From: an uncultured Planctomycetaceae bacterium
GTDB taxonomy: Bacteria; Planctomycetota; Planctomycetia; Pirellulales; Thermoguttaceae
Length of the DNA: 18,257 nt
Reading direction: 5' to 3'
Assembly: GCA_964473065.1 (NCBI GenBank)
Contig: CAYYOX010000050.1
Coordinates: forward strand, 1-18,257
Part shown: positions 9,331 through 18,257 of the stretch, piece after piece
Position numbering within the stretch: the first letter of the stretch is position 1
Layout of the letters: the number at the start of each line of letters is the position of its first letter
Position numbers and translations under genes: made by a program
The notes under the pieces: generated by a model
Told to the model about the DNA's origin: nothing
Seen by the model: the letters and a program-made list of their open reading frames with translations, nothing else
Database searches by the model: none

Positions 9331-10945
9331 CCTATCTCTATTTGCCCAGTTGGGGCCGCTAGGCGACCTTGGTACAATTGCCGCCATTACTGTGGTGATT
9401 GTGCTCGTTGTCCTGTTCAGCTTCGTGATGCTCGTAAAGGCGTTCTACAAACGCTGTCCAAGCAACCGCGTGTTGGTCATTTACGGTAAGACCAGCAAGG
9501 GCGAAGCCGCCACTTGTATGGCCGGAGGAGCCAAGTTCGTCGTGCCGCTGGTCCAGGACTATGCCTGGCTCAGTCTCGAACCGATGCAGATCGAGATCCC
9601 GTTGCGCGGGGCACTGTCGATCGAAAACATTCGCGTGAATGTACCCAGCGTGTTCACCGTAGCCATCGGCACCACGCCGGAACTGATGACCAACGCGGCC
9701 ATCCGCCTGTTGGGGTTGAGCTTCCACGACATCGAGAAGCAGGCCTCGGAAATCATCTTCGGGCAGCTCCGCCAAGTGATCGCCTCGATGCGGATCGAGG
9801 ACATCAACCGCGACCGCGACACGTTCCTTACCCATGTGCAAAACTCGCTCGAACCGGAGCTGTTGAAGATCGGCCTGAAGCTGATCAACGTGAACATTAC
9901 CGACATCACCGACGAGTCGGGCTACATCGAAGCCATCGGGCAGAAGGCGGCCTCTGAGGCCATCCAGAACGCCCGCGGCGACGTGGCCGACAACGAGAAG
10001 ATGGGCGCCATCCGCGTGGCCGACGCCGAGCGGGAAAAGGCCATCGAGGTCGCCGACGCCGAAAAGATCCAGAAGATCGGTACCCGAGAAGCCATGCGGA
10101 CCCAGGCCGTTCGCGTTGCTGACCTCGACAAGGAACAGCAGGTCGGCGAACAGTCGGCCAAGTTCGAGCAAGATGCACAGGTTAAAGAAGCCGAGCGCGA
10201 AATGCGTATCAAGCTGGCCGACGCCGACGCCCGCGCGGTCGAGGGCGAGAACCTCGCCAAGGCCGATATCGCCGCCTCCCAGGCAGAGTTGCAAGTGAAG
10301 CGTGCCGAAGCCTACGAGTTGGGCGAAACCCGCAAGGTTCGTGCCGAGGCCGCCGTACTCGAGGCCGAGCACCATGCCCGAGCCAAGGCCGCCGTGGCCG
10401 AAGCCGAACGGGTCGAGGCCAAGCGGCGTGCCGAGCTAGAAGCTCCGGCCAAGGCCGAGAAAGCCAAGATCATGGTCGAGGCCGAAGCCGAAGCGGCCAA
10501 GCTCCGCATCGAGGCCGAAGGTGAAGCGTCCGCCATCTACGCCAAGCTCGAAGCCGAAGCCCGCGGCCAGTACGAAATCCTGGCCAAGAAGGGTGATGGA
10601 CTCGAACGGATCGTCGAAGCATGCGGCGGCGCCCAGCAAGCCTTCCAGATGTTGATGCTCGAACACTTCGACAATCTGGTCGACGCCTCGGCCAAGGCCA
10701 TCTCGAACATCAAGTTCGACAAGGTGGTCGTCTGGGACACCGGCAACCAGAACGGCACCAGCAGCACGGCCAATTGGCTAACCAACATGGCCCAAACCTT
10801 ACCGCCGATGATGCAAGTCATGAAAGACATCGGCGGAGTGGAAATACCCGAGACGCTCGCCAATCTGGGCAGCATCGGCAAACAGACCGAAACCAACGGC
10901 AAGCAATCCGAACCGGTTACCACTGCGGAAACGCCGAAGGAGTAG
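9323..10945 (+). CDS. Flotillin-family SPFH/band-7 protein (YqiK/FloT-like)
   Basis: N-terminal TM helix. SPFH core VLVIYGKTSKGE...GALSIENIRVNVPSVFTVAIG. Long Ala/Glu/Lys-rich coiled-coil repeats (EAEAEAAKLRIEAEGEA...) characteristic of flotillins. AAGGGA SD upstream. Confidence 0.85.
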   Translation: MSNLSLFAQLGPLGDLGTIAAITVVIVLVVLFSFVMLVKAFYKRCPSNRVLVIYGKTSKGEAATCMAGGAKFVVPLVQDYAWLSLEPMQIEIPLRGALSIENIRVNVPSVFTVAIGTTPELMTNAAIRLLGLSFHDIEKQASEIIFGQLRQVIASMRIEDINRDRDTFLTHVQNSLEPELLKIGLKLINVNITDITDESGYIEAIGQKAASEAIQNARGDVADNEKMGAIRVADAEREKAIEVADAEKIQKIGTREAMRTQAVRVADLDKEQQVGEQSAKFEQDAQVKEAEREMRIKLADADARAVEGENLAKADIAASQAELQVKRAEAYELGETRKVRAEAAVLEAEHHARAKAAVAEAERVEAKRRAELEAPAKAEKAKIMVEAEAEAAKLRIEAEGEASAIYAKLEAEARGQYEILAKKGDGLERIVEACGGAQQAFQMLMLEHFDNLVDASAKAISNIKFDKVVVWDTGNQNGTSSTANWLTNMAQTLPPMMQVMKDIGGVEIPETLANLGSIGKQTETNGKQSEPVTTAETPKE

Positions 10946-10974: not shown

Positions 10975-11005
10975 AGCCCAGGGGTTGCAACCCCTGGGCT
11001 TTTTC
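10975..11005. terminator. Bidirectional rho-independent terminator hairpin between flotillin (+) and rubrerythrin (-)
   Basis: agcccaggggttgcaacccctgggct (10-bp GC-rich stem, loop ttgcaa), followed by ttttt on the plus strand. T-rich run on the minus strand as well. Confidence 0.8.
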
Positions 11006-11027
11006 TATGTAATCACGGCAACGTTCC

Positions 11028-11549
11028 TCAATAGGCCGTCGATTCCGGCTCGAAGTATTCGCTGGGATGCTTGCAGGCGGCACACTTCGCCAGCGGCTTC
11101 GTGCCTTCGTGAATGTAACCGCACACGCTGCACTTCCATCGGATCGCCGTCTCCCGCTCGTAGACGGTGCCGTTCTCCACCATTTCCAGCAGCTTGCGGT
11201 ATCGCTCTTCGTGGTGCTTCTCGATCTTGGCGATCTGCTTGAACAGTCTGGCGGCCTCGGCGTTGCCTTCCTCTTCGGCTTCCTTGGCGAAGGTGGGATA
11301 CATCTGCGTGGTCTCGTAATGCTCTCCCTCGACGGCCTCTTTCAGGTTGGCCTTCGTATCCCCAATCCCGCCCAACAGGGCCAGTTCATCCTTGGCGTGC
11401 CGCATTTCATTGGCGGCAGACTCCTCGAAGACCTTGGCGATATAATGATAGCCTTCCTTTCGAGCGACCTTGGCAAAATACGTATACTTGTTCCTAGCCT
11501 GCGATTCGCCCGCAAAAGCCGCTTGTAGATTATCTTCCGTCTTACCCAT
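11028..11549 (-). CDS. rbr: Rubrerythrin: ferritin-like diiron domain plus a C-terminal rubredoxin-like CxxC...CxxC domain
   Basis: Protein [53 protein letters not shown]...[25 protein letters not shown]. Diiron ExxH motifs and rubredoxin Cys pairs. AAGGAG SD 5 nt upstream of the ATG at complement 11547-11549. Confidence 0.95.
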
Positions 11550-16176: not shown

Positions 16177-17523
16177 TCAATTCACCGCCAATATCTCGGC
16201 GGCCGTTTCACAAAGCGTGCGAGCATCCAACTCACTGGGCGCCTCGGCCACGGCGCGAACTATCGGCTCGGTGTTGCTCGGGCGAACCAATAGCCAACGG
16301 TCCGCCCAGTCGAGGCGAAGTCCGTCGAGCCGGTCCGGCTTGGCGTCGGAGAAATGACGCGCCAAGGCGTCCAGACCGGCGGGAACCTGCTCTTTGGGCA
16401 GCGAAATTTTGGTCTTGACGATCTCGTAACGCGGCAGTTCGTCGGCCAATTGGCCGATCTTCATCTCGCGGGCGGCCATCGCGTCGAGCAATTGGGCCAT
16501 GCCCACGAAACTGTCGCGAACCAACCCCACGCGCGGATCGATCGGGCCGCCGTTCCCCTCGCCGCCGAACAGGGCTTCGTGCTCGAGCATCGCGTCGACC
16601 ACGTTCGCCTCGCCAACCGCCGATCGATGAAACGTCACGCCGTACTTGGCGGCCAGATCCTGCGACATCCGGCTGGTCGAACAGTTGGTCACGATCGGTC
16701 CGGTGCGCTGCCGCAGCAGATGGTCGACACACAGAGCCACCGTGTATTCCTCGCCGATGTAACGGCCCGTCTCGTCGATCAGGGCCAATCGATCGGCGTC
16801 GGGGTCCTGGCAGAACCCGACATCGGCGCCCGTCTCGGTTACGGCCGAGAGCACGCCGGAAAGGTTCTCGGCCGTCGGCTCGGGCGTATGGTCGAACTGT
16901 CCGTCGGGTATCTCGCCGAGCACCGTCACCCGGCAGCCAAGTTGTTGCAACAGAGGTCGTCCCAACGGGCTTCCGGCGCCGTGGTTGGCATCTAGCAGCA
17001 CGTTGAACTTTCGGCTTCGAATGCGCTCGACATCGACCGTGGCCAAGACGGCCGCGAGATGGGCCGAGATCGAATCGTCGCAGGTTTGGCCCGTCCCTAA
17101 TTGATCGTGCGGCGCCCAGTCGGTTTCGTTGGCTTGATACCGGGCCAACACCTTCTCGCCGGCCACGGCGGGGATCACGCGTCCGTCGGCCGAGAAGAGT
17201 TTGATGCCGTTGTACTGGATCGGGTTGTGGCTGGCCGAGATCTGGATCCCTCCGGCCGCCTGGAGGTTGCGGATCAGGATGCCGGTCGTGGGCGTGGCCG
17301 CGATGCGTGCGTCGATCGTGTCGCGTCCGGCCGCCTGCAAGCCAGCCTGGATCGCGCCGGCGAGCATCGCGCCCGAGCCGCGACTGTCGCGCGTGATGAC
17401 TATTAGCCCGGGCGGCATGGCGGCGGCAAAGGCCGTCACATAACGAACGGCCACGTCCGGCGTGAGGGTTTCCCCGACAATTCCCCGCAATCCGGACACA
17501 CTAATAATCAGTTCGCTGGCCAT
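16177..17523 (-). CDS. glmM: Phosphoglucosamine mutase / phosphohexomutase (alpha-D-phosphohexomutase family)
   Basis: MASELIISVSGLRGIVGETLTP N-terminus. Active-site loop ISASHNP (phosphoserine). The GFCQDPDADR metal-binding loop motif DxDxDR. C-terminal RPSNTEP sugar-phosphate loop. 448 aa. Confidence 0.85.
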   Translation of the reverse strand: MASELIISVSGLRGIVGETLTPDVAVRYVTAFAAAMPPGLIVITRDSRGSGAMLAGAIQAGLQAAGRDTIDARIAATPTTGILIRNLQAAGGIQISASHNPIQYNGIKLFSADGRVIPAVAGEKVLARYQANETDWAPHDQLGTGQTCDDSISAHLAAVLATVDVERIRSRKFNVLLDANHGAGSPLGRPLLQQLGCRVTVLGEIPDGQFDHTPEPTAENLSGVLSAVTETGADVGFCQDPDADRLALIDETGRYIGEEYTVALCVDHLLRQRTGPIVTNCSTSRMSQDLAAKYGVTFHRSAVGEANVVDAMLEHEALFGGEGNGGPIDPRVGLVRDSFVGMAQLLDAMAAREMKIGQLADELPRYEIVKTKISLPKEQVPAGLDALARHFSDAKPDRLDGLRLDWADRWLLVRPSNTEPIVRAVAEAPSELDARTLCETAAEILAVN

Positions 17524-17750
17524 GGGCTACCTTTTCAACACACTTGCAGTCATTCAACGGGCTACTGGGGTTGGTCATAGCAGCGAGCATGCGGCTCGCC
17601 TCACAGACTCCATCCCGCCCTGACCGAGGCAGTATAGGGCCAATGCGGCCGGCAAGAAAGGCGATTTCGCCCGCCCGAATCATTGGCGTTATTTGTCCCA
17701 GTGTTTGTCACCGCGACTGGGCCCAAACGCGACTGGACCCAAACGAAAAC

Positions 17751-17791
17751 GTTCGCCGCAAGTCGTTTTGGTACAACGACTTGTGGCGAAC
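17751..17791 (-). terminator. Rho-independent terminator of tRNA-Ser, minus strand
   Basis: 17751-17767 gttcgccgcaagtcgtt pairs with 17775-17791 aacgacttgtggcgaac (17-bp stem, one G:U wobble, 7-nt loop). On the minus strand it is followed by GTTTTCGTTT (revcomp of 17741-17750). Confidence 0.7.
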
Positions 17792-17806
17792 GCCAAGAAG
17801 CTTCAG

Positions 17807-17895
17807 CGGAGAGGACAGGATTTGAACCTGCGGACCAGTGTGACCCGGTCACCGGTTTAGCAAACCGGCGCTTTCGACCACTCAGCCACCTCTCC
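17807..17895 (-). tRNA. tRNA-Ser (anticodon GCT), class II with long variable arm. CCA not encoded.
   Basis: Revcomp reads GGAGAGG-TG-GCT-GAGTGGTCGAA-AGC-G-CCGGT-TTGCTAA-ACCGG-(long variable arm TGACCGGGTCACACTGGTC)-CGCAGG-TTCAAAT-CCTGT-CCTCTCC-G. 7-bp acceptor stem. 3-bp D-stem with a long D-loop typical of tRNA-Ser. Anticodon loop TT-GCT-AA. T-loop TTCAAAT. Confidence 0.85.
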
Positions 17896-18096
17896 GAAAC
17901 CCTTATGGTGCAAGGGTTTATATCTTTATTATCACATGGATTATGCGTTTGCCGCACTACCGCATATACTACTTTTAGTGAAATCTCCTGCCATAAGATG
18001 GGGTGTAAAGTTGCCCTGCCCGTTGTGTGGCCAGGCGAGGCCACCAAAAACCCTTTATCCAAGGCGACACAATGTCCAATTCTACCTCAAAAGGGC

Positions 18097-18257
18097 GTGC
18101 TCGAAAAGCCGCCACGAACCGCCCCCCCCAAACCTTACGCGGATTCCCCGCTCGGCCCGCACCCTCAGTGGCGCTTGGCAAAAGAAGATCAACCGCAAGA
18201 TCCACTATTTTGGCCGATGGGGGAGACGTGTCAACGGCAAACTGGAACGGCTTCCCG
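18097..18257 (+). CDS. Possible 5' end of a phage-type integrase-like gene at the window edge. It appears frameshifted (+1) around 18163-18169 and continues off-window.
   Basis: Frame 18073 gives ...KPYADSPLGPHP (possible GTG start at 18097). Frame 18074 from 18167 gives SGAWQKKINRKIHYFGRWGRRVNGKLERLP with no stop before the window end. Together they resemble a conserved integrase N-terminal motif (PKPYxDFPLxPHxSGxWxKKIxGKxHYFGRW...NGKxERL), recalled from memory and not searched. Adjacent to the tRNA and an AT-rich patch. Confidence 0.3.
   Translation, partial: MLEKPPRTAPPKPYADSPLGPHPQWRLAKEDQPQDPLFWPMGETCQRQTGTAS

Follow-up and report, generated by a model that had tools for sequence, protein, structure and literature searches.

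The tRNA-Ser(GCU) gene at the end of a Planctomycetaceae contig probably adjoins the remnant of an integrative element of reversed polarity

Positions 1 to 18,257 of contig CAYYOX010000050.1 (forward strand; assembly GCA_964473065.1, an uncultured Planctomycetaceae bacterium), the whole stretch of 18,257 nucleotides (nt) that we analysed and call the window, carry a gene for tRNA-Ser(GCU) and, beside it, the broken 5' part of a gene for a tyrosine integrase (int). An earlier note on this DNA had taken the tRNA neighbourhood for a possible boundary of an integrated element. Here we describe the locus, its continuation in metagenome contigs and a family of related loci in the Planctomycetota, and we argue that what remains next to the tRNA is probably the end of a degraded integrative element that carried the 5' half of its target tRNA, the polarity that we call reversed.

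Results

The tRNA gene and the int fragment

The tRNA-Ser gene (anticodon gct), the putative integration target, is intact. ARAGORN places it at 17806-17895 on the minus strand and finds no other tRNA in the window, and in an Rfam scan of 17500-18257 the tRNA model RF00005 matches 17807-17895 with 62.9 bits; both results bear out the class-II tRNA-Ser that the earlier note had read on the minus strand at 17807-17895. The anticodon stem-loop, with stems at 17852-17856 and 17864-17868 and the loop TTGCTAA at 17857-17863 (minus strand), is the predicted core site and crossover region by comparison with the relatives described below. Nucleotides 1-39 of the tRNA, its 5' half, occupy 17857-17895 (minus strand); the sequence of the tRNA-Ser(GCU) 5' fragment is GGAGAGGTGGCTGAGTGGTCGAAAGCGCCGGTTTGCTAA.

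The int fragment occupies 18072-18257 on the plus strand; it starts with the ATG at 18072, 176 nt from the tRNA 5' end at 17895 (a gap that matches the family layout), and runs off the contig, whose end is also that of the window. Three frames are needed to read it: the ATG opens MSNSTSKGRARKAATNRPP, frame +1 continues with KPYADSPLGPHP and frame +2 with SGAWQKKINRKIHYFGRWGRRVNGKLERLP. A DNA alignment with ten intact relatives locates two +1 frameshifts, one extra C in the C8 run at 18122-18129 and one extra C at 18166. The three-frame composite matches 17 database proteins, all of them short fragments, at 61-77% identity over amino acids (aa) 1-62 and across both junctions (E 1e-19 to 2e-10), and the repaired aa 1-81 aligns end to end with the integrases of 20+ loci at 61-74% identity. 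The N-terminal domain of the family, K-P-Y-x-D-F-P-L-x-P-H-x-S-G-x-W-Q-K-K-I-x-G-K-x-H-Y-F-G-x-W, is present in the window copy only after the two frameshift repairs, and near-invariant residues are replaced in it (F of DFPL by S, G of RGK by R). The integrase-like N-terminus that the earlier note had spelled from two frames, with a single +1 shift near 18166, is therefore upheld by its homologues, as is the extra C at 18166, but the reading needs a third frame and a second shift, in the C8 run.

The continuation beyond the contig end

An exact 59-mer search had no match in GTDB genomes, and an exact 59-mer from the window end matched two metagenome contigs, L084 and L085. The reverse complements of these are 100% identical to the window, L084 over 17803-18257 and L085 over 17522-18257, with both frameshift sites included; since both shifts are identical in the two contigs, random assembly errors do not explain them. 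The sequence of L084 reaches 1220 nt beyond the window end. In it, similarity to integrases ends at ~18315-18364 (virtual coordinates) after ...GEGWKEALALYEVQADDLHA, which leaves ~81 of ~430 codons. Because similarity is lost after ~codon 81 and a stop is reached, there is no catalytic domain: PF00589 (the R-K-H-R-H/W-Y fold) is missing from the window copy even with the L084 extension. By its sequence, then, the int of the window is a family member reduced to a pseudogene fragment, not a functional integrase.

Fused to the truncated int in inverted orientation is a fragment of ~110 nt (L084 1053-1163, virtual 18315-18425), which consists of a TG-initiated end, ~57 nt upstream of the fragment's ATG, and then MTKKRQIYTREFKIEAVR. 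The 18 residues of MTKKRQIYTREFKIEAVR match positions 2-19 of the PF01527 (HTH_Tnp_1) profile with E 0.049, below the family cutoff, and a tblastn search of plasmids with the fragment gave a weak match (E 9). We take it to be like the N-terminus of an IS3-family OrfA and use this as a tentative label; the fragment abutting int is possibly IS3-like. A minus-strand PilZ-like gene follows at virtual 18619-19056, ~300 nt past the int relic and ~190 nt past the possible IS3-like fragment. It has 593 homologues of ~145 aa in Pirellulales and Thermoguttaceae chromosomes, and similarity to the closest of them (90.6% nt identity) ends exactly at the stop codon. Eight tandem copies of the 15-nt unit GCGTAGAAGACATTG (L084 292-412, virtual ~19066-19186) lie upstream of the PilZ-like gene or in its N-terminal extension; if in frame, they would encode MSSTP eight times, and the 91%-identical L095 loses similarity just before them.

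The 1.1 kb past the relic showed no tblastx similarity to any of the related loci. As the extension resembles no related element, contains no tRNA-Ser fragment and includes a conserved host gene, element-derived DNA amounts to at most ~760 nt. The earlier note had supposed that the window may end at the edge of an island or prophage and had proposed to extend the sequence rightward; L084 provides that extension, and it shows only ~81 int codons and then the PilZ-like host gene, with no cargo. What stands of the proposal is a tRNA-proximal element edge, not an island that would still follow it.

Related loci in the Planctomycetota

An alignment of the matched fragments was used to scan GTDB genomes and yielded 80 Planctomycetota loci, from Gemmataceae, Planctomycetaceae, Pirellulales, Thermoguttaceae, and anammox and Phycisphaerae metagenome-assembled genomes, in which the same N-terminus typically heads open reading frames (ORFs) of about 380-470 codons. 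Three examined ORFs match PF00589, two of them above the curated cutoff of 27.1 (L038, 51 bits; L022, 30.8 bits), and we regard the family as one of tyrosine recombinases because its full-length relatives match this profile. With the layout defined as a divergent tRNA ~100-480 nt upstream of int whose 5' end faces int, 66 of the 80 loci have a divergent minus-strand tRNA upstream of int, with a median of 178 nt between the tRNA 5' end and the point where the tblastn match to int begins. Twelve anticodons occur among the tRNA-linked loci (Ser gct/tga/cga, Arg cct/tct/tcg/acg, Met, Lys ttt/ctt, Thr and SeC). The ENA contigs L001-L003 have the same layout at tRNA-Met, where int is likewise broken.

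Of the 39 relatives for which 9 kb or more of downstream sequence is available, eight (L012, L016, L022, L026, L032, L036, L038 and L061) have a direct repeat of the 5' part of the tRNA, 2.5-10.5 kb downstream of int. The repeat is 39-45 nt long, with 92-100% identity, in seven of these loci and 22 nt in L026; identity starts at most 3 nt from tRNA position 1 (in L026, only the last 22 nt are repeated) and ends exactly at the 3' edge of the anticodon loop. On JAYTQM010000691.1 (L016 9728-20291, L013 1650-10225), one intact tRNA-Arg(TCT) is followed by three elements in tandem: a 10.5-kb element, then a 5'-half fragment with a second divergent int ~105 nt on, then, ~8 kb further, another 5'-half fragment and a third int, truncated to 74 aa. 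In L009, L013 and L076, only a tRNA 5'-half fragment lies upstream of int. The 5'-half repeats, the tandem array and the fragment-only junctions together establish that the tRNA 5' half is part of the elements and lies beside their int, and it is for this reason that int lies on the 5' side of the tRNA as a rule of the family; the earlier note had called this orientation atypical, which it is not in 66 of 80 loci. The intergenic architecture from tRNA to int is conserved across species, and the 3' half of the tRNA and its 3' flank are species-specific.

Four distant members (L040, L053, L056 and L082) have an upstream tRNA that is co-oriented with int, the classical polarity, and for this reason polarity may have flipped within the integrase family; in L057 and L077, 3'-half repeats are found to the left. 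Some loci carry further insertions. In L009 (~700-830), the tRNA 3' half is replaced, upstream of an intact int, by the C-terminal coding end of a transposase-like gene (...HYHAERNHQG), which meets the tRNA-Arg 5'-half fragment right at the anticodon loop. A charged insertion of ~100 aa separates the integrase MSxSTRK start from the KPYPDFPL motif in L027 (9689-10396), L032 (9704-10519), L021 and L025. Directly after the decayed int at tRNA-Met in L001 (~10975-11465) there is a long, near-perfect palindromic insert with terminal inverted repeats, like those of miniature inverted-repeat transposable elements.

The intact elements are 7.6-10.5 kb long. In the two or three loci whose cargo was sampled, they encode an excisionase-like protein (HTH_17), primase-like proteins, a head-protease-like protein (DUF2213) and the large subunit of a terminase (phrog_2, E 3e-21), and because of these genes we regard the intact relatives as small phage-related elements.

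The region between tRNA and int

In an alignment of ~30 closer relatives, the interval from the tRNA 5' end to the int ATG holds an ordered set of features: a plus-strand box, TTTACGTC, ~20-28 nt from the tRNA; after it the TACTACC motif, in two direct copies and one inverted copy; and then the leader hairpin AAGTTGCC...GGCGAC, followed by GCCACCT and, immediately before the ATG, by GGAGGTGACGCC. All of them are recognisable in the window in the expected order, and only the two direct repeats are undamaged.

The region just upstream of the window tRNA (17896-17925, minus strand) is a candidate element-borne tRNA promoter. It contains the conserved box, which in the alignment of Ser(gct) loci reads TTTATATC in the window (17915-17922) and TTTACGTC in relatives, where the same box also stands upstream of other tRNAs. 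A small hairpin at 17897-17919 (AAACCCTTATGGTGCAAGGGTTT; -9 kcal/mol, z -2.8) adjoins the tRNA 5' end, and relatives have hairpin potential at the same place upstream of their tRNAs; it may belong to a leader, overlap a promoter or insulate the tRNA against antisense transcription from int. The AT-rich patch at 17917-17996 has a GC content of 0.35, the minimum of all 80-nt windows of the contig (mean 0.60, standard deviation 0.059; next lowest 0.41), which agrees with the earlier description of ~17915-17995 as the only AT-rich stretch of the window. In the alignment with relatives it takes the position of the family's int-proximal attachment arm (P' arm), and the patch would thus be interior element DNA, not an element boundary. 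The two direct copies of the motif, CACTACC at 17955-17961 and TACTACT at 17967-17973 (plus strand), are putative arm-type protein-binding sites.

At about 17978-17999 the window has an insertion of ~20 nt that relatives lack; the third, inverted motif copy (18002-18008, minus strand) is degenerate, with GGTGTAA replacing GGTAGTAA; and the int-leader hairpin survives as a broken remnant (18010-18040, plus strand) with a 5-nt deletion in its 3' arm, so that its stem is unable to form (z -0.5), as against -26.5 and -27.2 kcal/mol in L022 and L007. In the degraded ribosome-binding region (18060-18071, plus strand), AAGGCGACACA replaces the GGAGGTGACGCC of the family, and the Shine-Dalgarno (SD) sequence is AAGGCGA.

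Where it is intact (for example L022 9928-9968 and L007 9932-9972), the leader hairpin is a 12-bp helix, with 92% of the cells of the alignment paired and compensatory changes at 6 of the 12 pairs. For the two-helix structure formed by this hairpin and a tentative anti-SD helix, the covariation score was reached by none of 500 shuffles, and slid controls were 33-52% paired. The invariant U-G pair suggests that the hairpin acts as RNA in the int sense; it has no match in Rfam. In the SD-sequestering helix, CACCT/AGGTG, the 5-bp core is mostly conserved with two compensatory cases, a faint hint that CACCT, by pairing with AGGTG, could cover the ribosome-binding site.

At the far end of seven elements, a GGTAGTA-N3-TACTACC palindrome lies 130-180 nt inside the element and is followed by two or three tandem repeats of ~10 nt that resemble CGTTTTGG (CGTTTTGGCA-like); examples are L022 ~18613-18680, L038 ~19771-19830, L012 ~19653-19720 and L026 ~19200-19260. 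This palindrome and the repeats near int resemble arm-type sites on both arms of the element's attachment site (attP), and we suggest that they are putative integrase-binding sites. The layout of two direct copies and an inverted one recurs with other motifs in distant clades (CGACAACC in L092, ~9900-9960; TTGACAACC in L070 and L072, ~9860-9900), and the second element of the tRNA-Arg(TCT) array has the arm repeat ACTACGCCC twice. The sequence of the arm repeats seems to change along with the integrase clade.

The host-side flank

Directly 3' of the tRNA, on the minus strand, is an intrinsic-terminator-like hairpin at 17750-17792, an inverted repeat with 18-nt arms that are 94% complementary (-32.5 kcal/mol, z -4.4). 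On the tRNA strand UUUUCGUUU comes after it, and this hairpin and its tail confirm the tRNA terminator of the earlier note. Beyond the tRNA, nothing passes in the Rfam scan of 17500-18257; P37 and psbI-rps4 appear below their gathering cutoffs and overlap the terminator and the tRNA. Further left, on the host side between the terminator and the upstream region of glmM, two copies of a 16-nt tandem repeat with one mismatch, CGCGACTGGGCCCAAA / CGCGACTGGACCCAAA, occupy 17712-17743. The repeat had been noted before and does exist, but we found no connection with attachment sites and rejected it as an attachment or arm feature: the unit has no further copy within the window, and comparable tandem repeats, which differ in sequence between loci, occur in 11 of 60 related left flanks versus 5 control regions, which means that the repeat does not characterise the family. 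The remainder of the left flank consists of housekeeping-type chromosomal genes, for example glmM and those for a URO-D-like protein and an OprB porin.

Discussion

We conclude that 17857-18257 is probably the tRNA-proximal end of a degraded integrative element, which belonged to a Planctomycetota-wide tyrosine-integrase family and targeted the anticodon stem-loop in reversed polarity. Because the far end and the attachment repeats are absent here, integration at the window tRNA has to be deduced from the behaviour of the family. The attachment site of such an element would carry a copy of the tRNA 5' half, from nt 1 to the end of the anticodon loop. Integration would produce a chimeric, functional tRNA, with its 3' half from the host and its 5' half from the element, and would move the original 5' half of the host to the far end of the element; the chimeric tRNA would then adjoin an element-derived upstream region, with the divergent int about 170 nt off. 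On this model the element boundary in the window would lie inside the tRNA, in the anticodon loop at 17857-17863, and the 5' half of the window's own tRNA, together with the region upstream, would have been supplied by the element. The crossover would presumably occur in the anticodon loop, at whose 3' side the edge of the identity block is seen in relatives. The TACTACC repeats would be the arm sites of the integrase, and the tRNA would be transcribed from an element-side promoter, for which the conserved box is the candidate. Nearly all of the window's element would subsequently have been lost, leaving tRNA nt 1-39, the attachment arm and the first ~81 int codons, cut off by the possible IS3-like fragment. 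We suggest that the stump may have been kept because the 5' half and upstream region from the element are now needed for tRNA-Ser(GCU).

Several observations weigh against this account. A displaced tRNA-Ser 5' fragment is absent from the 18-kb window and from the 1.2-kb extension, although the earlier note had proposed to look further right for a repeat of a tRNA segment as an attachment site; its absence is consistent with a deletion of the far end of the element. The note had also suggested a comparison with relatives that lack the insertion, and no close relative with an empty site was found around glmM or the PilZ-like gene: in the nearest GlmM relatives (L086-L091, 75-79% identity) glmM is not accompanied by a tRNA, neither a tRNA nor int accompanies the PilZ-like gene in its homologues (L095-L099, up to 91% nt identity), and there is no island-free comparison because synteny around these two genes is not conserved in the nearest relatives. 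IMG/VR gave no free attP, only three loci, all of them integrated or ending at the contig end. Finally, nt 1-39 of the window tRNA match the repeated 5' half in the L022 element without a difference, and this is weak evidence of an origin from an element, since tRNA-Ser 5' halves are conserved anyway.

Of the alternatives, one would leave int functional and ascribe its frame changes to sequencing or assembly errors or to programmed +1 frameshifting, and the C8 homopolymer at 18122-18129 is indeed a classic site of error and slippage. Yet both shifts are exactly repeated in two other metagenome assemblies, the homologues are single unbroken ORFs, integrase similarity ends at ~codon 81 before a stop with the catalytic domain missing, the SD sequence, leader hairpin and near-invariant residues are damaged too, and the eight other large ORFs of the contig are intact with good Pfam matches. 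We therefore give a functional int hardly any credence; among the options listed in the earlier note, the shared frameshifts and the truncation favour the decayed pseudogene over sequencing error and programmed frameshifting. That a complete genomic island or prophage continues to the right, so that the window merely stops at its edge, would be suggested by the contig ending inside int and by the 7.6-10.5 kb of phage-like cargo in relatives. L084, however, shows int cut at ~18315, followed by the ~110-nt possible IS3-like fragment and a PilZ-like gene that is kept in hundreds of Pirellulales chromosomes and has no similarity to the related elements, and we consider a surviving island unlikely.

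It could also be argued that the tRNA is cargo of the element as a whole or a mere neighbour, in which case the integrase would use some other site and the adjacency would reflect a shared promoter region; the far attachment site is missing in the window, and phages sometimes carry tRNA genes. We think this very improbable given that the tRNA 3' half and 3' flank are species-specific, that the tandem arrays comprise one intact tRNA and then 5'-half fragments, each before an int, and that the same geometry recurs at 12 different anticodons. Of course, the co-oriented tRNAs of L040, L053, L056 and L082 and the leftward 3'-half repeats of L057 and L077 raise the question of classical polarity here as well, with an element integrated 3' of the tRNA-Ser, that is to the left, and the int remnant as unrelated debris. 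This is scarcely believable: the left flank is made up of housekeeping-type genes, no tRNA-Ser fragment occurs anywhere in the 18 kb, and the intergenic region of the window matches the reversed-polarity architecture feature by feature.

A reversed-polarity stump thus remains the reading that we prefer. We also incline, with more reserve, towards a wider proposition: that a phylum-wide family integrates as a rule with reversed polarity, in the anticodon loop of 12 or more tRNA species, and leaves chimeric host tRNAs on element-borne promoters, that decayed stumps are kept by selection (addiction or domestication), and that the int-leader hairpin and the possible SD-sequestering helix form a new cis-regulatory module. 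For the window itself, the practical consequence is that the terminal ORF of the contig is to be labelled as a fragment of an integrase pseudogene and that the locus gives no ground for predicting an island or prophage; nearby repeat-type DNA, namely the int remnant and the possible insertion-sequence fragment, accounts for the contig break. Taken alone, the window is a case of ordinary genome decay, and the family context is moderately interesting. It bears on the turnover of tRNA promoters and on the persistence of short element stumps beside tRNA genes, it means that island-finding software needs to search for 5' fragments upstream of tRNAs, and it provides a covariation-supported leader hairpin and clade-dependent sets of arm repeats that are open to experiment.

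In bacteria, an individual integrative element studied by Zhao and Williams in 2002 reportedly recombines with the 5'-distal, not the 3'-distal, part of its tRNA; that is an individual case, whereas in the planctomycete family reversed polarity is the norm across the phylum. The intact relatives are similar to phage satellites and islands of the PICI type in their small size and in having int, excisionase-, primase-, terminase- and head-protease-like genes. They differ in that no helper phage, capsid or satellite hallmark genes were identified in the sampled relatives, and in the window no cargo is left. According to PMC4482086, dusA-specific integrases likewise insert in the 5' end of their target gene and must restore its 5' part, but their target is protein-coding and they belong to another integrase family.

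A further comparison is with the classical integrases that use the anticodon loop (Williams 2002, NAR 30:866, as summarised in PMC8371274). They share with the planctomycete family the 7-nt loop and palindromic stem as the likely overlap and core site, and both kinds of element have an identity block that runs from the loop to one tRNA end, int beside the attachment site, arm repeats on both attP arms, and tandem arrays. The classical block extends to the tRNA 3' end, with the island 3' of a tRNA that keeps its own promoter, whereas in the planctomycete family the block extends to the 5' end and the element is on that side. The mirror image has a counterpart in the pTN3-like integrases of Thermococcales (Cossu et al. 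2017), for which PMC8371274 gives the 5' half of a tRNA gene as attB and states that the recombinant tRNA is expressed from the integrase promoter. These are tyrosine recombinases like those of the planctomycete family, but they belong to archaeal plasmid or virus-like elements, whereas in the planctomycete family at least 12 tRNA species serve as targets, and the family has an N-terminal domain and TACTACC arm repeats of its own; we liken the two by description. PMC8371274 calls the use of the tRNA 5' half 'seldomly encountered in bacteria', and PMC8371274 and PMC6563490 describe integration that replaces the tRNA 5' half and promoter as rare there. The Islander algorithm (PMC4383910) allows for 5' fragments upstream of the tRNA. 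We found no description of a family-wide reversed-polarity habit in Planctomycetota in the open-access literature text. Since the pTN3-like integrases and the handling of 5' fragments by Islander precede it, reversed polarity as a kind is already known; what appears to be new here, judged from sequence comparison, is its standard use throughout a family in the Planctomycetota.

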